Source: an uncultured Acidobacteriota bacterium (GTDB lineage: Bacteria; Acidobacteriota; Vicinamibacteria; Vicinamibacterales; CAVPJW01). Taken from it: a stretch of 64,000 nucleotides of DNA. A program made the translations under genes and the position numbers. Shown in pieces: positions 1 to 63,707 of the stretch; positions within the stretch are counted from its first letter, which is position 1, and each line of letters begins with the position of its first letter. A model generated the notes under the pieces. It was not told where the DNA came from. It saw only the letters and a list, made by a program, of their open reading frames with translations, and ran no database searches. The stretch is taken from assembly GCA_963705525.1 (NCBI GenBank), contig CAVPJW010000007.1, positions 184,355 through 248,354 on the forward strand. Reading direction: 5' to 3'.

Positions 1-192
1 GCTCACGAGCCCCTCGCGGACCCGGTTCTTCCGCACCAGATCCATGACCGTGTCGGTCAGGTCGACGACGTCGATCCGCTGGTTCGTCTGAACGACGATG
101 GTCTCACCATGAATCGTGAGGCCGCCGGCCGTCGCAGTCGAGACATCCGAAACCGGCGTCTCGCGGACGGTGACCGTCGAGCTCTTGTTCAT
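1..192 (-). CDS. YjbQ/UPF0047 family protein, 5' part (gene runs off the window start)
   Basis: My own minus-strand translation from the ATG (rc of 190-192) gives MNKSSTVTVRETPVSDVSTATAGGLTIHGETIVVQTNQRIDVVDLTDTVMDLVRKNRVREGLVS... This fits the N-terminal pattern of the YjbQ family (ID[IV]TD.V followed by a G-L-V stretch). A GAGGAG Shine-Dalgarno lies just upstream. It is absent from the ORF track because it is open at the window edge. Confidence 0.55.
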   Translation of the reverse strand, partial: MNKSSTVTVRETPVSDVSTATAGGLTIHGETIVVQTNQRIDVVDLTDTVMDLVRKNRVREGLVS

Positions 193-896: not shown

Positions 897-905
897 TGCT
901 ATACT
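897..905 (+). promoter_or_regulatory. Extended -10 promoter (TGcTATACT) for the riboswitch-btuB transcript
   Basis: The sequence atgcTATACTgcg contains a TGn motif directly 5' of TATACT. It lies about 15-20 nt upstream of where the riboswitch fold begins. No good -35 is present, which is consistent with an extended -10 promoter. Confidence 0.4.
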
Positions 906-919
906 GCGCGCTGACAACC

Positions 920-1168
920 GACGCTCACCCGACGACTACGGGAAGTGGGTGCGAAACCCACACGGTCCCGCCACTGTAAGCGGGGAGCGGCCGCTCGAAC
1001 GGCGCTCGCAAGAGCGCCCGTCACTGTGCTCTCGAGGGAGCATGGGAAGACGCAGAGCGGACCGCGTGGATCCGCGAGTCAGGAAACCTGGTCATCGGGG
1101 TTCGTCCCCTTCCGCCTCCACCGGCGACGTGGAGGCCCCGGCGCGTGGTCACGCCGGAAGGAGACTCA
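920..1168 (+). promoter_or_regulatory. Cobalamin (B12) riboswitch with SD-sequestering expression platform
   Basis: The conserved core GGGAAGTGGGTGCGAAACCCACACGGTCCCGCCACTGTAA lies at 940-979. The B12 box GAGTCAGGAAACCTGG lies at 1077-1091. Downstream, CCCCTTCCG (about 1106-1114) is complementary to the SD region CGGAAGGAG (1155-1163) preceding the ATG at 1169. The element sits directly 5' of a TonB receptor plus a BtuCDF-type transporter. Confidence 0.85.
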
Positions 1169-3460
1169 ATGCCCGCTCCGCATCCCCGCTCACGATTTCT
1201 TTCTCCTCCCGTTCTTCGCACGTTCGGATTTTGTCTGATCGCGATGAGCGCTGCGCTCACCGCGCTCGCCGCGACCGTGCAGGGCACCGTCAGCGATCCG
1301 GACGGCAAGGCCGTGCCCGGCGCCCGAGTCGTGCTCTCGACGCCGCTGACGTCGGCCGCCACGGCAACGACCGACGCGAATGGTCACTTCAGCTTCGACT
1401 CACTCGCGGCCGGCCGCTACGAGGTGCACGTGCTGATCGAGGGGTTCCGCGCCGCGCCCGTCTCCTTCGTGCTCGAGGCGAATGAGTCGCGCGACGTGCC
1501 TGTGACCTTACAGGTCAGTGCCTTCACCGAGTCCGTGGTGGTCTCCGCGTCACAAGTGGATGTGCCCCTTTCCCGCGTCGCGGATTCGGTGGCCGTCGTC
1601 ACCGAACGTGAACTCGAGGCACGGCAGGTGGAGTCGGTGTCCGATGCCCTGCGATCGATCCCGGGGATGACCGTCGTGCGGAGCGGCGGGCGCGGTGGGC
1701 TCACCGCGGTCTTTCCTCGAGGCGGTGAGTCGGATTTCACCCTGGTGCTGGTAGACGGCATGCGGGCGAACGACTTCGGCGGCGGATTCGATTTTTCGAT
1801 GCTGCCGCTCGCGAGCGTCGAGCAGGTCGAGATCGTGCGTGGCCCGCAGAGCGCGTTGCACGGCTCGGACGCGATCGGTGGTGTCGTGCAAATCGTCACG
1901 AGACGGGGCGGGCGCCCACGCGCCGGCGCGCTCTTCGAGGGCGGCGGGATGGACACGACGCGGGTGGCCGCGACGACGGCGGGGTCGGTGAACCGCTGGA
2001 TCTGGGGCGGCGCGTTCGATCGGCTTGCGACCGACGGCTTTACTGGCATCGCCCCCGCAACCGGAGAGCCGGTGACCAACGACGATTACGAGATGCAGGA
2101 GGGTTCGGGCACGTTCGGATATCAGGCGTCAGACTCCTTCGACGCACAGCTGAACGTCCGCGTCTACTCGGATGAGCGAGGCTTCCCCGGGCCGTACGGA
2201 TCCAACCCGATCGGCGCATTCACGAATGTCGATCGGACTTCCCGCGGAAAGAACGACGGCCGGCAGGTTGGCTTCAGAACGACCTTTCCGTGGAGCGCCT
2301 CCGATCGATGGCGTCAGCAGGCCAACGTGTCGTACTCGGACTTTGATGGGAGCTTTGTCAGCCCGTTCGGAGACTCTACGAGCGGCCTGAATCGCTGGAC
2401 GGCGCGAACCGTCACCGACGTCCTCGCATGGCGCGACACGACGGCGAGCTTCGGCGTAGAGTTCCAGAACGAAAAGGCAGACAACACGTTCATCACGGGC
2501 GCATCGGGCACGATGGTGCCCGTCAAGCGACGGACGTTCGGCTATTTCGGTGAACTGCGAGCGCAACCGAGCGAACGGCTGTCGATCATCGGCGGCATCC
2601 GGGTCGAGCACATCAGGCGTGAACGGCTCGAAGCCAGTTTCGATCCGTTCTCTCCGCGCCCGACATTCGATGTGGACACCGTGGTCTCACCGAATCCCAA
2701 AGTCACGGCGGGGTATTACCTCAGCCTGCCGAGCACAACTGGATCGTGGACGCGACTGCGCGCAAGTGCCGGCACCGGTATCCGGCCGCCTTCGGCGTTC
2801 GAGATTGCCTTCACTGACAATCCCGGACTGAAGCCCGAAAGAAGCCGTAGCATTGAGGCCGGCGTCACCCAGGCATTCGCAAACGGAGCGGTCATGCTCG
2901 ATCTGACCGGCTTCTACAATCATTTCGACGATCTGATCGTGGCCGTGGGCCAATCACAGCAGGATGCCAGTCGATATCAGACGGATAACATCGCGAACGC
3001 GAGATCGAGCGGCCTTGAAACCGGCGTGTCCTGGCGCCTCGCCTGCGGACTGATGAGCCGCGCCACCTACACGTGGCTCTCGACGGAGATTCTCGCGGTT
3101 GACGGCGCCAGCAATGAAGCCCCGTCGCCGTTCGTCCCCGGCGACCGGCTGATACGACGCCCGAAGAACCAGGGCTCACTCGACGTCACGCTGACGCGCG
3201 AGCGCTTCAACGCCTTCCTGACCGTCGAGGCGCGGGGGCAGATGATCGACGTGGAGCCGTCGTTCGGCACCTTCGGCGGACTCTTCTCCAATCCCGGCTA
3301 CGGCGTGGTTCACATGGGCGGCGGCGTTCGACTCACGAGCGTCGTTGAGGTGTATGGGCGCGTGATGAATCTGTTCGATCGCCAGTACGAGGAAGCTCTG
3401 GGATTCCCGGCGATTGGCCGCACAGCCCTCCTGGGAGTGCGCGTTGCTACACGTCGATAG
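1169..3460 (+). CDS. btuB: TonB-dependent outer-membrane receptor (cobalamin/corrinoid type) with N-terminal CarboxypepD_reg-like domain
   Basis: ORF 1145..3460. The ATG at 1169 has a GGAAGGAG SD. Signal peptide: FGFCLIAMSAALTALAA. Carboxypeptidase-regulatory-like segment: TVQGTVSDPDGKAVPGARVVL. Plug segment: DALRSIPGMTVVRSGGRGG...FPRGGESDFTLVLVDGMRAN. A long beta-barrel follows. A B12 riboswitch lies upstream. Confidence 0.85.
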   Translation: MPAPHPRSRFLSPPVLRTFGFCLIAMSAALTALAATVQGTVSDPDGKAVPGARVVLSTPLTSAATATTDANGHFSFDSLAAGRYEVHVLIEGFRAAPVSFVLEANESRDVPVTLQVSAFTESVVVSASQVDVPLSRVADSVAVVTERELEARQVESVSDALRSIPGMTVVRSGGRGGLTAVFPRGGESDFTLVLVDGMRANDFGGGFDFSMLPLASVEQVEIVRGPQSALHGSDAIGGVVQIVTRRGGRPRAGALFEGGGMDTTRVAATTAGSVNRWIWGGAFDRLATDGFTGIAPATGEPVTNDDYEMQEGSGTFGYQASDSFDAQLNVRVYSDERGFPGPYGSNPIGAFTNVDRTSRGKNDGRQVGFRTTFPWSASDRWRQQANVSYSDFDGSFVSPFGDSTSGLNRWTARTVTDVLAWRDTTASFGVEFQNEKADNTFITGASGTMVPVKRRTFGYFGELRAQPSERLSIIGGIRVEHIRRERLEASFDPFSPRPTFDVDTVVSPNPKVTAGYYLSLPSTTGSWTRLRASAGTGIRPPSAFEIAFTDNPGLKPERSRSIEAGVTQAFANGAVMLDLTGFYNHFDDLIVAVGQSQQDASRYQTDNIANARSSGLETGVSWRLACGLMSRATYTWLSTEILAVDGASNEAPSPFVPGDRLIRRPKNQGSLDVTLTRERFNAFLTVEARGQMIDVEPSFGTFGGLFSNPGYGVVHMGGGVRLTSVVEVYGRVMNLFDRQYEEALGFPAIGRTALLGVRVATRR

Positions 3461-4250
3461 CGTCAGCTTCGCGTACGGTCATCGCGCCACCACCCGCCGC
3501 GGTGCGCCCCCGGCCCGCGAGGTGCTGAGCCGCGTCACCTTGCACGTCGAGCGGGGTGCGCTCATCGGCGTCCTCGGCCCGAACGGTTCCGGCAAGTCCA
3601 CGCTGATCAGGCTCATGGCGGGCACGCTGACGCCGACATCAGGAGAGGTGACGCTCGACGAGGTGTCGATCGCCCGGATCCCCCGTGCAGCGCTCGCCCG
3701 GCGCATCGCTGTCGTCCCGCAGGAAACGCGTCTCACCTTCGACTACTCCGTCCTCGACATCGTGCTGATGGGCCGGTATCCGCACATGGGTGCGTTCGAG
3801 CTCGAGGGACCCGAAGAGATCCGCCTGGCGCGCGAAGCCCTGGCCGCCACGGACACCCAGGATCTCGAGGACCGGCCCTTCGCGAGCCTGAGCGGCGGAG
3901 AGAAGCAGCGCGTGATCCTTGCGTCGGCTCTTGCACAATCGGCCGAGCTCCTTCTGCTCGACGAGCCGACGGCTGCCCTCGATCTCGGCTATCAGATGGA
4001 GGTCGTGATGATCCTCAAGCGCTTGAACGAGAGTCGAGGCGTCACCATGGTCTTGACCGCGCACGATCTCAACTTTGCGGCGAGCCTCTGTCGGCACCTG
4101 ATCCTCCTGAAACAGGGAAGGGTGATTGCGGCTGGTCCGACGGCGGAAGTCCTGACGCCCGACTCGATTCGCGCGCTGTACGGCGTCGAAGCGGACGTGA
4201 GACACCACGAACGCGCGGGCCACGTCACGATTGTGCCAGTGGGAAAATGA
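3444..4250 (+). CDS. btuD: ABC transporter ATP-binding protein (FepC/BtuD family)
   Basis: ORF 3414..4250. Walker A GPNGSGKST, signature LSGGEKQRV, Walker B LLLLDEPTAALD, H-loop TAHDL. The likely start is the TTG at 3444 (MLHVDSVSFAYG), which overlaps the btuB end. The exact start is uncertain. Confidence 0.88.
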   Translation: MLHVDSVSFAYGHRATTRRGAPPAREVLSRVTLHVERGALIGVLGPNGSGKSTLIRLMAGTLTPTSGEVTLDEVSIARIPRAALARRIAVVPQETRLTFDYSVLDIVLMGRYPHMGAFELEGPEEIRLAREALAATDTQDLEDRPFASLSGGEKQRVILASALAQSAELLLLDEPTAALDLGYQMEVVMILKRLNESRGVTMVLTAHDLNFAASLCRHLILLKQGRVIAAGPTAEVLTPDSIRALYGVEADVRHHERAGHVTIVPVGK

Positions 4251-4303
4251 GCGGCTTAGGGCTTCGGACTTCAGGTTCAGGCTTCGCTGGACGCCGAAGG
4301 ACT

Positions 4304-4344
4304 AAGATTAAGAACCAAGAACTAAGAACCAAGAACCAAGAACT
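4304..4344 (+). repeat. Tandem AAGAACY heptamer array (aagatt aagaacc aagaact aagaacc aagaacc aagaact)
   Basis: Read directly from the sequence. Five in-phase heptamers plus one degenerate unit form an AT-rich island in GC-rich DNA between btuD and btuC. It is preceded by an imperfect hairpin whose arms are cttagggcttcgg and ccgaaggactaag (4255-4305). Confidence 0.9.
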
Positions 4345-4406
4345 TCTCCATTGTCTTCTAGTCCCGACTCCGTCACCGCCTGTTCGTCACTGTCCTCGCC
4401 TTTGGT

Positions 4407-5363
4407 GTGCCCGCCCTCGCGGCCTGTCTCCTTGCGCCACTCATCGGCTCGACGCACATCAGCTTGTGGCGTGTCGTCGATCGATCGATTGCGATCAGCG
4501 ACAACGTGGACGCGCAGATTTTCTTCGTGGCGCGCCTGCCGCGGGTGCTTGCGGCGGCGCTCGTCGGAGCGGCGCTGGCCGCGGCGGGAGTCGTGTTTCA
4601 GGCGCTTCTCCGAAACCCTCTTGCGACGCCGTTCACGTTGGGCGTGTCGGCCGGAGCGTCGCTCGGAGCCATGCTGGCGATTACCTTCAACCTCGACGTC
4701 TCATTCGGCGAGCTATCGGCCGTGCCCATCGCCAGTTTCGCCGGCGCGCTCGGCGCGGTCGCGATTGTCTATGCCCTTGCGCGGGCGCGACATCAGGGCA
4801 TATCCACGACGGTGCTCCTTCTGGCGGGAGTCACGCTCAACGCGTTCTTTTCGGCCATCATCATCTTCGTGCAGTACTTTGCCGATTTCTCGCAGACCTT
4901 CCGCACGGTCCGCTGGCTGATGGGTGACCTCGACGTGGCCGGTTATACGCCGATCGTCGCCGCGCTGCCCTTCACCGCGGTGGCATTCATCGCCTTCGGT
5001 GTCCTCCCGAGGGCGCTCAATCTGATGAGCCTGGGCACTGATGCCGCGGCCACACGCGGCATTGACGTGGTGAACACGCAGCGCTTGGCGTTCTTCAGCG
5101 CTTCGCTGGCCACGGGTGCCGCTGTTTCGCTCGGCGGGCCGATCGGGTTTGTGGGCATCATCGTTCCTCATCTCGTGCGCCTGCTGGTCGGATCCGATCA
5201 TCGCCTCGTGCTGCCGGCCTCGCTTCTCTTCGGTGCAACGTTTCTGATTGGCTGCGACGTGCTCTCTCGCACGCTCATGCCACCACTCGAGCTCCCGATT
5301 GGCGTTCTCACCGCGTTGATCGGCGGACCATTCTTCATCTGGCTGCTCGTCCGACGGGGCTGA
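4407..5363 (+). CDS. btuC: FecCD/BtuC-family ABC transporter permease
   Basis: ORF 4407..5363 starts at a GTG. Typical FecCD motifs are present: RLPRVLAAALVGAALAAAGVVFQALLRNPLA.P..LGVSAGASLG and GPIGFVGIIVPHLVRLLVG.DHR. The frame is open from 4362 and encodes more of TM1 (RLFVTVLAFGVPALAA). The real start may therefore be upstream at a non-canonical codon such as the CTG at 4380. Confidence 0.85.
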   Translation: MPALAACLLAPLIGSTHISLWRVVDRSIAISDNVDAQIFFVARLPRVLAAALVGAALAAAGVVFQALLRNPLATPFTLGVSAGASLGAMLAITFNLDVSFGELSAVPIASFAGALGAVAIVYALARARHQGISTTVLLLAGVTLNAFFSAIIIFVQYFADFSQTFRTVRWLMGDLDVAGYTPIVAALPFTAVAFIAFGVLPRALNLMSLGTDAAATRGIDVVNTQRLAFFSASLATGAAVSLGGPIGFVGIIVPHLVRLLVGSDHRLVLPASLLFGATFLIGCDVLSRTLMPPLELPIGVLTALIGGPFFIWLLVRRG

Positions 5364-5368
5364 ACGGC

Positions 5369-6226
5369 ATGCATAGGCTCGCCAAGGCATTCACCGCGCT
5401 TGTCATCGTGCTGATGGCCATCGGCCTCCAGGCGGCGCCGCCACAGCGAATTATTTCGATCGTGCCGGCGTTGACGGAGATGCTCTTCGCCATCGGCACA
5501 GGACCTCGGGTCATCGCCGTTAGCAGCTTCGACAACTTTCCGCCCGAAGTGCGCGCGCTTCCGCGCGTGGGTGCGCTGCTCGATCCCAATCTCGAGATGA
5601 TGCTGTCGCTCAAACCCGACCTCGTCGTCGTCTACAAGAGCCAGGCAGACCTCACAACGCAGCTGTCGCGCGCCAATATCCGGACGTTCTCGTATGCGCA
5701 TGGCGGCCTCGCCGACATCGTGTCAACGATTGAAGCGCTGGGGCGTGAGACGGGCATGGCCGAGCGCGCCGAAGCGCTCGCCAGCAGCATCAATACGCGG
5801 CTCGCTGGAGTACGTGCACGCGTGGCGCCGCGTCCGAAGCCCCGTGTGCTGCTCGTCTTCGGGCGGGACAGCAAGTCGCTTCGGAACATCTATGCGAGCG
5901 GCGGCACCGGTTTCCTCCACGACATGCTCGAGCTGGCCGGCGGCGACAACGTCTTTCGTGATGTGAAGCGCGAGTCGGTGCAGGCGACGACGGAAGCCAT
6001 CCTCTCGTCTGCGCCGGACGTGATCATCGAGCTTCGTTACACAGGCGACGTCGGCGCCGACGCTCTGGCACGCGAGCGGACCGCATGGAACGCGCTGAGC
6101 GCCGTTCCAGCGGTGCGCGCCGGGCGCATCACGTTTCTCGTCGGAGATGAATTCGTGGTGCCCGGCCCCCGGATCGGTGACGCGACGGAGCGCATGGCGC
6201 GGGCAATTCATCCGGAGGCGTTTTAG
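5369..6226 (+). CDS. btuF: Periplasmic cobalamin/siderophore-type substrate-binding protein (BtuF-like, cluster A-II SBP)
   Basis: Signal peptide MHRLAKAFTALVIVLMAIGLQAA, then RIISIVPALTEMLFAIG and LKPDLVVV, typical of the PF01497 fold. It lies in an operon with btuCD. Confidence 0.8.
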   Translation: MHRLAKAFTALVIVLMAIGLQAAPPQRIISIVPALTEMLFAIGTGPRVIAVSSFDNFPPEVRALPRVGALLDPNLEMMLSLKPDLVVVYKSQADLTTQLSRANIRTFSYAHGGLADIVSTIEALGRETGMAERAEALASSINTRLAGVRARVAPRPKPRVLLVFGRDSKSLRNIYASGGTGFLHDMLELAGGDNVFRDVKRESVQATTEAILSSAPDVIIELRYTGDVGADALARERTAWNALSAVPAVRAGRITFLVGDEFVVPGPRIGDATERMARAIHPEAF

Positions 6227-6233
6227 GCGTTGC

Positions 6234-7067
6234 ATGGACCCGTACCCTGAGCGCATCGTCTGCCTGACGGAAGAGACGACCGAGACTCTGTATCTGCTTG
6301 GACAGGGCCATCGGATCGTCGGGGTGTCGGGGTATACGGTCCGGCCGCCGGAAGCCCGCTCCAAGCCCAGGGTGTCGGCGTTCATCAACGCGCGGTTCGA
6401 GAAGATTGAGGCGCTCCAGCCGGATCTCATTCTGGGCTTCTCCGATCTGCAAGCAGACATCGGAGCGGAGCTGGTCAGACGCGGATGGCCGGTCGTCATT
6501 TTCAACCAGCGCAGTGTCGCGGAGATATTGCAGACGATCAGGATGATTGGCGGGCTCGTCGGGAGCGAGGCCGGCGCCGATAGACTCGCGACCACTCTCG
6601 AACGCGACCTTGACGCGATTCGCCAGAGTGCAGCGCGATTTCCTCGAAGACCGAGGACATTCTTCGAAGAGTGGAACGACCCGCTCATTTCCGGCATTCA
6701 CTGGGTGGAGGAGCTCGTCGAAGTCGCCGGTGGAGCGCCGCTCTTCCCTGAGCTTCGAGGTCAGAAACTGGCGAAGGATCGCATCGTCTCAATCTCGGCG
6801 GTGGCCGAGCGCGATCCCGACGTCGTCATCGCATCGTGGTGCGGAAAAGCGGTGCGGAAGAGCGCGATCGTCTCAAGACCAGGGTGGGCCGATGTCACCG
6901 CCGTCCGGGACGGATCCGTCTTCGAAATCAAGTCGACCTACATCCTGCAGCCGGGCCCTGCTGCGCTGACCGAGGGCATTCGCCAGCTTCACGCGATCCT
7001 CTCGCGCGTTGTCGGCCTACCGATCGACCCAGATCTGATGCCGACCGAACGAATGGACGGGGGATGA
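6234..7067 (+). CDS. Second BtuF/PF01497-like binding protein lacking any signal peptide
   Basis: ORF 6147..7067. The ATG at 6234 gives MDPYPERIVCLTEETTETLYLLGQGHRIVGVSGY...LQPDLILGF...DPDVVIASWCG. This is the same fold family as the preceding gene but has no hydrophobic N-terminus. Confidence 0.7.
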   Translation: MDPYPERIVCLTEETTETLYLLGQGHRIVGVSGYTVRPPEARSKPRVSAFINARFEKIEALQPDLILGFSDLQADIGAELVRRGWPVVIFNQRSVAEILQTIRMIGGLVGSEAGADRLATTLERDLDAIRQSAARFPRRPRTFFEEWNDPLISGIHWVEELVEVAGGAPLFPELRGQKLAKDRIVSISAVAERDPDVVIASWCGKAVRKSAIVSRPGWADVTAVRDGSVFEIKSTYILQPGPAALTEGIRQLHAILSRVVGLPIDPDLMPTERMDGG

Positions 7068-30405: not shown

Positions 30406-30530
30406 GATCGGTTCTTGGCTCTCAGCTAGTCGTCTTCATTCATCGGCTTTCCGCAATCAGCTCTGGGCTTCCAGTAGGTCAGACTGGCAGGCCTGAGTTG
30501 CCGCGGCCACTCATTTGTCGATGGTTGCGC

Positions 30531-57861: not shown

Positions 57862-57932
57862 AGTTGAAGCGCCAGGCTTCGGCAGGGACTGGGTACTAAC
57901 CACCAACAACTAAGAACCAGAGAGATCCCCAT

Positions 57933-57994
57933 CGGTTGAGGGATCGGAGTCGATTCGACTCCCGACCCTCAACGGTGCGGAGCTCGACGCTCCG
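57933..57994. terminator. Two consecutive hairpins between convergent genes
   Basis: Hairpin 1 (57933-57975) is cggttgagggatcggagtcg att cgactcccgaccctcaacgg, an imperfect stem of about 19 bp. Hairpin 2 (57978-57994) is cggagc tcgac gctccg. Neither has a clear U tract. Confidence 0.35.
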
Positions 57995-62584: not shown

Positions 62585-63596
62585 CGCGCCCGTCGATCCG
62601 AAATCCTTCCTTCAACGGATCATCGTCGTCGACGAGGAACTCGTGCTGGCCGGTCACCCAGGCCGATCCTTCGATCTCCGGCACGATCGCTTCGTGCTCG
62701 CCGACGACGGTCCGCGCCACAATCCTTCCTGAGAACGTCGTTCCGATCAGGCTTTCGTGAACGAACGGACTGTGGTCCTGAAGCAGGCCCATCGCCGAGA
62801 GCACAGCCATGACCGCGCAGGTGCCGGTGCCACAGGGTGAGCGATCGACCTCCGCATCCGCGAAGATCGTCACGTTACGCAGGTCGGCCGACGGGTGTCG
62901 GGGCGGCCCCGTGAAGATCGTCCCGTAGATTCCGCGCAGGTCCTTCTCCGATGGATGGACGATGGACTGCGTCGCTTCGACCGCCTGCTTGATCTCCATG
63001 CCGAGGCGACGCAGATCCCCGAGCCGGTTCTGCTCGACGGGCACACCGGCGGCCTCGCTATCGACGATGGCGTAAAAGGCGCCGCCGAATGCCACGTCAA
63101 CCGGAATCTCCCGTGACCCAATCCTCACGGAAAGGCCAGGCAGGTACACGAACGAGGGGACATTGGCAAACCGCACGCTTCTGACGCGGCGGTCCGACTC
63201 GGGTTCGAACTGTGCGGTCGCGCGGATCGGACCGGCTGGCGAATCGAGAACGATTCCGGCAGAGTCGGCGCGGTTCAGGATGAGTCGGTGCTCGAGCGCA
63301 ATCGATACCACGGCGATGATGCCGTGACCGCACATCGTGCTGTAGCCCTCGTTGTGCATGAACAGCACGCCGGCATCGGAACCAGGCGCGACCGGTTCGG
63401 TCAGGACGGCGCCGTACATGTCGAGGTGGCCTCGCGGCTCCTGCATGAGCGCGCGGCGGATCCAGTCGCAGTGAGACCGCACCCAGGCCCGCTTCTCGAG
63501 CATGGTCCGTCCTCGCGGCGAAGGAAACCCCTCCACGATGAGACGCAGCGGTTCGCCGGCGGCGTGTGCGTCGATGGTGCGAAGGCGGTGGATCAT
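62574..63596 (-). CDS. Proline racemase family enzyme (4-hydroxyproline 2-epimerase / proline racemase type, Cys-Cys pair)
   Basis: IDAHAAGEPLRLIV, STMCGHG (first catalytic Cys) and DRSPCGTGTCA (second catalytic Cys). Confidence 0.85.
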   Translation of the reverse strand: MIHRLRTIDAHAAGEPLRLIVEGFPSPRGRTMLEKRAWVRSHCDWIRRALMQEPRGHLDMYGAVLTEPVAPGSDAGVLFMHNEGYSTMCGHGIIAVVSIALEHRLILNRADSAGIVLDSPAGPIRATAQFEPESDRRVRSVRFANVPSFVYLPGLSVRIGSREIPVDVAFGGAFYAIVDSEAAGVPVEQNRLGDLRRLGMEIKQAVEATQSIVHPSEKDLRGIYGTIFTGPPRHPSADLRNVTIFADAEVDRSPCGTGTCAVMAVLSAMGLLQDHSPFVHESLIGTTFSGRIVARTVVGEHEAIVPEIEGSAWVTGQHEFLVDDDDPLKEGFRIDGRVSS

Positions 63597-63612
63597 GGAG
63601 AGAAGTTGTAGT

Positions 63613-63675
63613 GCTTAGTTCCTGGTGCTCAGTTCTTGGTGAGTTCCTAAGAACAAAGAACTAACCCCTAAGAAC
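63613..63675. repeat. Head-to-head (inverted) array of the same heptamer family: gcttagt tcctggt gctcagt tcttggt gagttcc | taagaac aaagaac taacccc taagaac
   Basis: Read directly from the sequence. A 7-nt phase is preserved across both halves, and the right half is the forward AAGAAC orientation seen at 4304-4344. It lies between divergent genes. Confidence 0.8.
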
Positions 63676-63701
63676 TTCGCGTCTTTAGACACCCAGCCGA
63701 T

Positions 63702-63707
63702 TATAAT
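63702..63707 (+). promoter_or_regulatory. -10 box TATAAT only 10 nt upstream of the OCD-family ATG (near-leaderless transcript)
   Basis: gatTATAATcgcccggcttATG. No SD lies between the box and the start codon. The geometry matches that at argC. Confidence 0.4.

Follow-up and report, generated by a model that had tools for sequence, protein, structure and literature searches.

A probable heptanucleotide simple sequence repeat between the ATPase and permease genes of a cobalamin riboswitch operon in an uncultured Acidobacteriota bacterium

A repeat-bearing spacer inside the operon

We analyzed a stretch of 64,000 nucleotides (nt) from an uncultured Acidobacteriota bacterium (the window, ~63% G+C; its proteins have their nearest matches in Vicinamibacterales), which carries an operon headed by a cobalamin riboswitch and, within this operon, a spacer of 156 nt (4251-4406) between the stop codon of an ATP-binding cassette (ABC) transporter ATPase gene and the first canonical start codon of a permease gene. 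The gene order is riboswitch, TonB-dependent receptor, ABC ATPase, FecCD permease and two periplasmic binding-protein genes. A preliminary description of this DNA labelled the ATPase and permease genes btuD and btuC; the analysis showed ABC_tran and FecCD domains, encoded after the cobalamin riboswitch and the gene of the TonB-dependent receptor. The 333 codons of the remaining permease frame are intact, and Pfam coverage is 100%. The operon and the spacer contain the following features.

899-1106, plus strand: cobalamin riboswitch at the head of the operon (Rfam RF00174, 71 bits, E = 1.7e-15)
1145-3460: TonB-dependent receptor gene, after the riboswitch and before the ABC ATPase gene
3414-4250, plus strand: ABC transporter ATPase gene, btuD (Pfam ABC_tran, 1.6e-32; stop codon TGA at 4248-4250)
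4253-4287, minus strand: decayed, inverted heptamer units (GGCTTAG GGCTTCG GACTTCA GGTTCAG GCTTCGC), the left arm of a palindromic spacer
4255-4306, plus strand: imperfect hairpin of the left arm and the decayed sense units CGAAGGA CTAAG (RNA fold -21.3 kcal/mol, z = -1.6)
4295-4309, plus strand: decayed sense units CGAAGGA CTAAGAT T, running into the perfect array (register of 7 read from the sequence)
4310-4344, plus strand: five perfect AAGAACY units, 37% G+C, predicted to be unpaired (from Tandem Repeats Finder, enrichment and folding)
4362-5363, plus strand: FecCD permease reading frame, btuC (Pfam FecCD, 1.2e-89)

The preliminary description had read an array aagatt aagaacc aagaact aagaacc aagaacc aagaact at 4304-4344, and this reading was confirmed. 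On 4310-4343, Tandem Repeats Finder gave a period of 7, 4.9 copies and 92% matches. A two-unit pattern with up to two mismatches matched the window 9 times vs 0.31 expected, a number reached by none of 100 shuffled sequences. The left half of the spacer is also periodic, with a self-identity of 0.52 at lag 7 vs 0.1-0.36 at other short lags. Read in 7-nt steps from 4253, the spacer runs GGCTTAG GGCTTCG GACTTCA GGTTCAG GCTTCGC TGGACGC CGAAGGA CTAAGAT and continues TAAGAAC CAAGAAC TAAGAAC CAAGAAC CAAGAAC TTCTCCA TTGTCTT CTAG, and the units of its left half are the reverse complement of AAGAAC-like units, decayed and richer in G+C. Hence, the insert is made of a pair of heptamer arrays in inverted orientation, an old one and a fresh one. 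The fresh array has the forward orientation and comes without a Shine-Dalgarno motif; a TTG codon (4351, out of frame) lies 6 nt past it and the first in-frame canonical codon, GTG 4407, lies 62 nt past it.

When comparing the junction of the ATPase and permease genes with that in five related operons (loci L002, L004, L267, L269 and L271), we observed that the ATPase stop codon overlaps the permease start in all five, by 1, 4 or 17 nt as called, and that none of the five has a spacer there or carries an AAGAAC unit. Gene order is kept in four of the five, L004 being without a TonB receptor gene upstream of the ATPase gene. The closest permease homologues are 77-79% identical to the permease of the window, which is the single member of its database cluster. 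The overlap and the lack of a spacer in the relatives mean that the 156-nt spacer is a derived, lineage-specific gain, as the preliminary description had supposed when it called the spacer an insertion. Judged from these junction sequences, the insertion broke an overlapping stop/start, an arrangement typical of translational coupling, and put what appears to be about 100 nt of untranslated RNA in place of the ancestral overlap. That btuC translation is affected by it is a reasonable inference.

The spacer has at least three head-to-tail 7-nt units, a non-coding location and a lineage-specific presence, which are the marks of a heptanucleotide simple sequence repeat. We consider it very probable that it is such a repeat, grown by slippage at the ATPase-permease junction in one lineage, and that it belongs to a widespread intergenic class and is not mobile.

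The imperfect hairpin with 13-base-pair (bp) arms that had been noted in the spacer is real and modestly better than chance; its arms lie at 4255-4267 and 4294-4306, and the end coordinate first given was off by one. In it, helices of 5 and 6 bp flank a 2x2 internal loop and an inner stem of 6 bp follows, and its energy was matched or beaten by 12 of 200 shuffled sequences. This 11+6 bp hairpin pairs decayed units only and leaves the five perfect ones single-stranded in the prediction; it arises as a by-product when decayed units of the two inverted arrays pair. A stable RNA structure of the whole spacer was rejected, the folding being less structured than that of shuffled sequences (z = +2.0 and +1.2). 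A scan of 3900-4700 gave no intrinsic terminator, the hairpin being followed by AUUAAGAACC and no U-tract, and a consensus scan of the same region gave no sigma-70-like promoter whose -35 and -10 elements the repeat could separate, as it would in a phase-variable promoter spacer. Promoter and terminator scans found no site at the spacer array or at the second array locus of the window (see below), and an Rfam search of the spacer returned no match at the gathering score or at E <= 1.

The window and the relatives also differ further along the operon. Two tandem Peripla_BP_2 genes are listed in the window (5369-6226 and 6147-7067, overlapping by 80 nt as listed), and the relatives' loci show one. 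The spacer between permease and binding-protein genes bears other short tandem repeats in the relatives, namely four GGGATCA units in L269 (about 2500-2535), GACGCAGAG-type 9-mers that reach the ATG of the binding-protein gene in L271 (2495-2560), and ACGCAGAG 8-mers in L002 (6021-6053). With the relatives' next spacer also bearing repeats, repeat-filled intercistronic spacers are thus a habit of the group.

Heptamer arrays in the window and in other genomes

The preliminary description had placed further copies of the motif at three dispersed sites, all intergenic, and all of them are found there (63610-63676, 57897-57918 and 30410-30418).

30410-30418, minus strand: solo unit CCAAGAACC (minus-strand ccaagaacc), in sense, ending 4 nt upstream of an enoyl-ACP reductase ATG
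57897-57918, plus strand: decayed three-unit array TAACCAC CAACAAC TAAGAAC, 36 nt past the stop codon of a VWA-domain gene
63611-63645, minus strand: array arm AACTCAC CAAGAAC TGAGCAC CAGGAAC TAAGCAC (Tandem Repeats Finder period 14)
63648-63676, plus strand: array arm TAAGAAC AAAGAAC TAACCCC TAAGAAC, upstream of an OCD/mu-crystallin-family gene (ATG 63718)

TAAGAAC is confined to three loci of the window (4309/4323, 57911 and 63648/63669), and the solo unit at 30410-30418 could be of chance origin. The stretch 63611-63676 repeats the plan of the spacer, with two inverted arms that are each sense for the gene that they face; the arm at 63611-63645 is sense for a proline-racemase-family gene starting at 63596, for which a leader fold of -35.3 kcal/mol (z = -2.3) is predicted. 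Each copy near a start in the window lies on the sense strand of the adjoining gene. The plus-strand arm (63648-63676) sits upstream of a TATAAT at 63702-63707. Shine-Dalgarno motifs are scarce before the genes of the window (about 6 of 50 by eye).

Some neighboring sequences were seen alongside these copies. Between the divergent proline-racemase-family and OCD/mu-crystallin-family genes lies a palindromic ATTATAAT (63700-63707), which could be a -10 box both ways; as a minus-strand -10 box it would give a leader of ~100 nt holding both array arms, with a predicted fold of z = -2.3. TATAAT-like boxes occur 6-12 nt before many starts in the window (897 on the minus strand, 16080, 22052 on the minus strand, 33205 and 63718), and leaderless mRNAs may be common in the source organism. 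Directly past the decayed heptamer site, a long near-perfect hairpin (GGTTGAGGGATCGGAGTCGA / TCGACTCCCGACCCTCAAC, 57931-57976) with no obvious U-tract lies between convergent genes.

We scanned one genome per species for three AAGAACY units, which gave at least 120 matches listed, and analyzed 822 kb of loci; the counts that follow refer to the matches listed. Gene calls in these genomes were crude, made from open frames and codon-position G+C rules that are symmetric on both strands, and loci from one genome are not independent of each other. By record titles, the matches come mostly from Bacteroidota, Acidobacteriota, Planctomycetota, Verrucomicrobiota, Chloroflexota and Cyanobacteria, with few from Proteobacteria, Firmicutes and Actinobacteriota. 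The expected intergenic bias was borne out, 135 of 143 arrays (94%) being non-coding. The claim that the motif is a real, dispersed, intergenic repeat family is upheld.

Arrays within 60 nt upstream of a start codon were sense in 32 cases vs antisense in 10 (p = 0.0009), and within 10 nt the numbers were 13 vs 2. A Shine-Dalgarno core preceded none of 16 array-preceded genes vs 105 of 517 other genes of the same loci. Arrays end 0-20 nt before the ATGs of apparently ordinary genes, and the ATGs that they abut include those of genes read, from the N-terminal sequence alone, as rpsM (S13), enolase and rpiB. About eleven arrays fill the spacer between co-directional genes, the same layout as between btuD and btuC. 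Within arrays, unit drift is common (for example from cgcgaac through cgagaac to caagaac); lengths are variable and flanks unrelated. Even without the AAGAAC arrays, 7 is the commonest period of tandem repeats in the 822 kb, with 177 arrays of 131 distinct units, against 36 for period 6 and 50 for period 8. Near starts, the mRNA strand of these other heptamer arrays contains little G (12.5%); C exceeds G in 21 of them and G exceeds C in 9. Perfect inverted arrays able to form long duplexes are present in other Acidobacteriota (L016, L052, L053, L072 and L100).

A search of a viral collection with three-unit patterns also gave at least 120 matches listed. In IMG/VR loci L128-L257 (for example L129, L135, L140 and L148), 86 of 133 AAGAACY arrays lie inside long open reading frames (ORFs), on the sense strand, and encode ..TKNQEPRTKNQ.. 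sequences. Eight of these ORFs were read and six were scanned against Pfam, where three had a DUF1376 (YdaU) N-terminal domain and three had no family; the array lies in an apparent linker and the proteins may be of replication type. The DNA units are identical in phages of 39-66% G+C, which suggests conservation at the DNA level, perhaps as lambda O-like origin repeats in an initiator gene, or else recurrent slippage. Because the viral arrays are mostly coding, they were excluded from the leader statistics.

Repeats of 7 nt have been described before. They are the most over-represented long class of simple repeats, with TAACTGA arrays just upstream of starts (PMC4679880), and Mrazek 2007, as far as cited in PMC4679880 and PMC4692102, reported an over-representation of heptanucleotide repeats in bacterial intergenic DNA, with which the prevalence of period 7 in the 822 kb agrees. 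With the long 7-nt simple sequence repeats (Mrazek 2007 in the parts cited there, Calothrix short tandemly repeated repetitive (STRR) sequences and the Xanthomonas/Nostoc GGGAATC type, PMC4692102), the AAGAACY arrays share head-to-tail intergenic units, variation of length and sequence between relatives, occasional inverted pairs, several units per genome and presumed slippage. Unlike the GGGAATC type, AAGAACY is A-rich and G-poor and hence cannot form a G-quadruplex, and the host phylum is Acidobacteriota. The TAACTGA repeats of marine Beggiatoaceae, Cyanobacteria and Bacteroidetes (MacGregor 2015, PMC4679880) resemble the AAGAACY arrays as a class. They have 2-6 or more forward tandem units within a few nt upstream of starts, stand in place of a Shine-Dalgarno motif, are scattered over unrelated phyla before genes without a common function, and have been proposed to act in translation. 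The spacer array differs in its unit, which makes it an analogue and not a member, in that the sole nearby canonical start is out of frame, and in the few copies in the window (3-4 in 64 kb). For heptamer repeats near start codons in Nostoc, a role in translation has been speculated upon in a preprint (10.1101/2022.06.06.494920).

The (ATCTTTC)n repeat of Haemophilus influenzae hmw1A and hmw2A is likewise a transcribed upstream heptamer, part of which pairs with a complementary arm in a hairpin of the 5' untranslated region that is processed by ribonuclease (RNase) III, and its repeat number gives graded, not on/off, expression (PMC12721329). In hmw, the hairpin arm comprises at least 10 units and cleavage by RNase III has been shown, whereas here only decayed units pair and the five perfect ones are predicted to be single-stranded; that repeat serves an adhesin of a pathogen, this one lies in a transporter operon of a soil bacterium. 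The spacer shares only part of the hmw repeat architecture. A description of the AAGAACY unit was not found in the literature searched, where its letters turned up in primer lists only; this search was incomplete, and novelty is not proven.

A-rich, Shine-Dalgarno-independent leaders, which depend on ribosomal protein S1 or are called 'Kozak-like', occur in Bacteroidota and Cyanobacteria. They share with the spacer array an unstructured A-rich sequence before the start in phyla with few Shine-Dalgarno motifs, and differ from it in having no tandem repeats. We know of no link shown between such leaders and 7-nt repeats.

The start codon of btuC

Three features downstream of the array bear on the start of the permease gene.

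4351-4353, plus strand: TTG, candidate btuC start, 6 nt (4345-4350) after the array and one base out of frame as sequenced
4359-4365, plus strand: in-frame TAG (4359-4361) followed by TCCC, with a CCC run at 4363-4365; a 1-nt length change there would restore a canonical start
4371-4406, plus strand: codons of the conserved permease N-terminus RHRLFVTVLAFG, upstream of GTG 4407

The permease frame is open from 4362, after the TAG, with GTG 4407 as its first ATG, GTG or TTG and a CTG at 4380, as had been described. GTG 4407 is the start of the 318-amino-acid copy of the permease in the database. Ahead of it, 15 open and conserved codons lie in frame (S-R-L-R-H-R-L-F-V-T-V-L-A-F-G), and in sixty homologues the N-terminus reads M-(0-5 residues)-RRRLxxTVLxFG or has a longer extension (25 residues in some). 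Translation and homologue alignment confirmed that conserved N-terminal codons are present without a canonical in-frame start, and between the TAG at 4359 and the conserved codons there is no near-cognate in-frame start either. Over the six consecutive codons of TVLAFG the window and the relative L002 differ at third positions only, and this stretch was therefore translated for most of its history.

We enumerated length variants of the CCC run. With CCCC at 4363-4365, the protein from TTG 4351 would have normal length, begin with LSSSPRLRHRLFVTVLAFG and read LSSSPRLRHRLFV; with CC, the frame from ATG 4247 would read through the array. The position of TTG 4351 agrees with that of the arrays elsewhere, which end 0-20 nt before starts. 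We tentatively favor TTG 4351 as the btuC start, with a 1-nt indel in the CCC run that belongs to the assembly or to the genome. It is somewhat doubtful that btuC begins at GTG 4407, which would give a permease lacking half of the first transmembrane helix, and rather unlikely that btuC is simply a damaged gene. A start at CTG 4380 seems improbable, and a start elsewhere very improbable. The annotated permease start is probably wrong, or the gene is damaged, and this bears on whether the organism can import B12.

Three assemblies of one relative (L001, L002 and L003) were available for comparison. Between L002 and L003 there are 11 single-base indels in 11 kb; L001, whose genes are fragmented, is separated from either by about 65 indel events. 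Errors of the 1-nt indel type are frequent in these long-read metagenome assemblies, and at about one 1-nt indel per kb between them an assembly error at the CCC run is plausible. Several AAGAACY arrays of other genomes lie exactly at contig ends (L015, L031, L047, L124, L125 and L127). Such repeats evidently break short-read assemblies, and local misassembly could result from them.

The frame of ATG 4247 is open for 226 codons through the array (4247-4927), out of frame with the permease, and is probably a chance ORF of a G+C-rich genome. That it is a decayed coding extension, as a weak resemblance to the extensions of P0010/P0011 might imply, was rejected on its third-position G+C of 0.48 and its 7-periodicity.

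A possible leader role and its alternatives

The layout of the spacer is consistent with the following sequence of events. An older, now decayed inverted array and a younger, perfect sense array of five AAGAACY units very probably arose by replication slippage. In the mRNA, the sense array is A-rich, G-poor, predicted to be unpaired and without a Shine-Dalgarno motif, and could serve as a landing zone from which ribosomes would begin btuC independently a few nt downstream. Repeat number would then set the efficiency of btuC gradually, as an evolvable dial, and the upstream hairpin may mark a point of mRNA processing or stabilization. By analogy with the similar arrays directly before starts in many phyla poor in Shine-Dalgarno motifs, we tentatively propose that the sense array is an open, G-poor leader permitting independent initiation of btuC. 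Taken together, the account of the spacer's identity, the change at the junction, the leader role and the start has, in our estimate, an even chance of being right.

Several points weigh against this account. What it says on function draws on analogy and on gene calls of a crude, ORF-based kind. The array has a single canonical start nearby, which is out of frame, and a start codon in the wrong frame within the 18-nt zone has roughly even odds by chance. Most genes of the window look intact in a search for other frameshifted genes, so a high indel rate is not evident in its assembly. The arm at 63648-63676 is upstream of a likely -10 box and is thus probably not in the mRNA of the gene that follows it. 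After stop codons, arrays are equally common both ways, with 29 sense vs 29 antisense among the matches listed. The orientation bias before starts may reflect selection against antisense arrays, which bring UUG starts and more G-U pairing, and not a benefit of sense arrays. Repeats of a length that is not a multiple of 3 stay in non-coding DNA even if functionless, and in viral contigs five AAGAACY units outnumber two heptamers of matched composition by no more than a few-fold (16 vs 2 and 7).

In another reading, the repeat is a functionless product of slippage, tolerated only in non-coding DNA, which destroyed the coupled start of btuC and left the permease truncated from GTG 4407 or absent. 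We hold this to be possible, if doubtful. Slippage is the explanation given in the literature (Mrazek 2007, in the parts cited in PMC4679880 and PMC4692102), the same genomes contain very diverse heptamer units, arrays show no orientation bias after stop codons, the relatives are without the spacer, and ahead of the conserved RHRLF codons the frame offers neither a canonical nor a near-cognate start, but an in-frame TAG at 4359. However, the sense-strand bias and the close abutment to starts hold across phyla. The array-preceded genes, which apparently include housekeeping genes (judged by their N-termini only), are without a Shine-Dalgarno motif, and the arrays must therefore at least permit initiation. 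In the window, the permease frame is otherwise intact, with 333 codons and complete Pfam coverage, and the decayed left arm argues against a very recent insert, although the 15 codons ahead of GTG 4407 have stayed open and conserved.

It is less probable, and in our view improbable, that the spacer acts as a negative or processing element of the RNA, in which the hairpin at 4255-4306 would be cut or protective, or Rho would load on the long G-poor stretch, so that expression levels would differ between the receptor and ATPase genes on one side and the permease and binding-protein genes on the other. The hairpin stands directly after the ATPase stop codon and is followed by ~100 nt of untranslated, unstructured RNA with more C than G; a layout of hairpin, sense array and start is predicted for the leader of the proline-racemase-family gene too, other Acidobacteriota have perfect inverted arrays, and the hmw repeat sets the precedent of an RNase III-processed hairpin (PMC12721329). 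Against this, the hairpin is marginally better than shuffled sequences, the whole spacer is less structured than they are, the scan gave no terminator-like site, and inverted arrays are equally explained by a sense preference on both sides of divergent genes.

A site acting at the DNA level, bound by a regulator or by a nucleoid or initiator-like protein, or forming part of an internal promoter, is very unlikely. The array forms an AT-rich patch where the genome has 63% G+C, proteins bind heptad direct repeats in other systems (SARP regulators and the TTTTGAT repeats of Vibrio cholerae ctx are examples), a -10-like TATAAT follows the plus-strand arm at 63648-63676, and AAGAACC repeats are kept at the DNA level inside putative replication-type genes of phages over a wide range of G+C (39-66%). 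Yet scans gave no promoter-like site at either locus, neighboring units face different sides of the helix at a period of 7 bp, and unit sequences drift freely. Arrays that end 0-10 nt from starts are placed inside transcripts, and the strand bias relative to the downstream gene and the G-poor sense strand point to RNA.

The preliminary description had offered two readings, a REP (repetitive extragenic palindromic)- or MITE (miniature inverted-repeat transposable element)-like family and a possible binding array for protein or RNA, and the first of them did not stand. The spacer is palindromic overall, it is absent from orthologous junctions and its motif recurs at other intergenic sites, but only the heptamer units recur. 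Nothing else in 4241-4410 matches elsewhere in the window beyond 13 nt, leaving the non-repeat parts without a second copy there; the insert is internally 7-periodic, no target-site duplication was seen at its borders, and the arrays of other genomes show a continuous range of lengths and merge gradually into different units. Drifting units, variable lengths and unrelated flanks indicate simple sequence repeats generated by slippage and not a transposed element, and we regard a mobile element inserted at the junction as highly unlikely.

The least credible reading is a frame-switching contingency locus, with the repeat inside an N-terminal extension from ATG 4247 and with gain or loss of units toggling btuC: ATG 4247 overlaps the ATPase stop codon (ATGA) with a frame open through the array, 7 is not a multiple of 3, a CC at 4363-4365 would make five units 'on' and four or six 'off', and some homologues have 25-residue N-terminal extensions, but as sequenced 0-9 copies all lack a canonical-start permease, the TAG at 4359 blocking the frame, which excludes phase variation by copy number for the sequence as given, and 4247-4309 is 7-periodic and not coding-like, with a third-position G+C of 0.48 (hand count) vs about 0.8 in genes.

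Returning to the proposed leader, a broader version of it is more speculative still. G-poor 7-nt arrays, AAGAACY included, might constitute a recurrent, orientation-specific, Shine-Dalgarno-independent initiation element, and the same element would serve Acidobacteriota, Planctomycetota, Verrucomicrobiota, Chloroflexota, Bacteroidota, Cyanobacteria and their phages; we think this version unlikely, though worth stating. The unstructured repeat would receive ribosomes or ribosomal protein S1, slippage would provide heritable, finely adjustable expression, and at the locus described here the array would have replaced the translational coupling of btuC.

For over 30 years, heptanucleotide repeats have counted as a peculiarity of certain bacterial genomes, with no consensus on what they do. 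New here are an AAGAACY unit common to many phyla poor in Shine-Dalgarno motifs, a measurable strand bias by start codons, and a clean before/after comparison of overlapping genes in relatives with a repeat-built spacer in the window. The single locus is ordinary once classified; the strand bias across phyla and the comparison of ancestral and derived junctions make the function of such repeats more testable. If the arrays do drive initiation, they would be a simple, evolvable means of tuning protein output, and would give a practical cue for annotating the start codons of poorly studied phyla.

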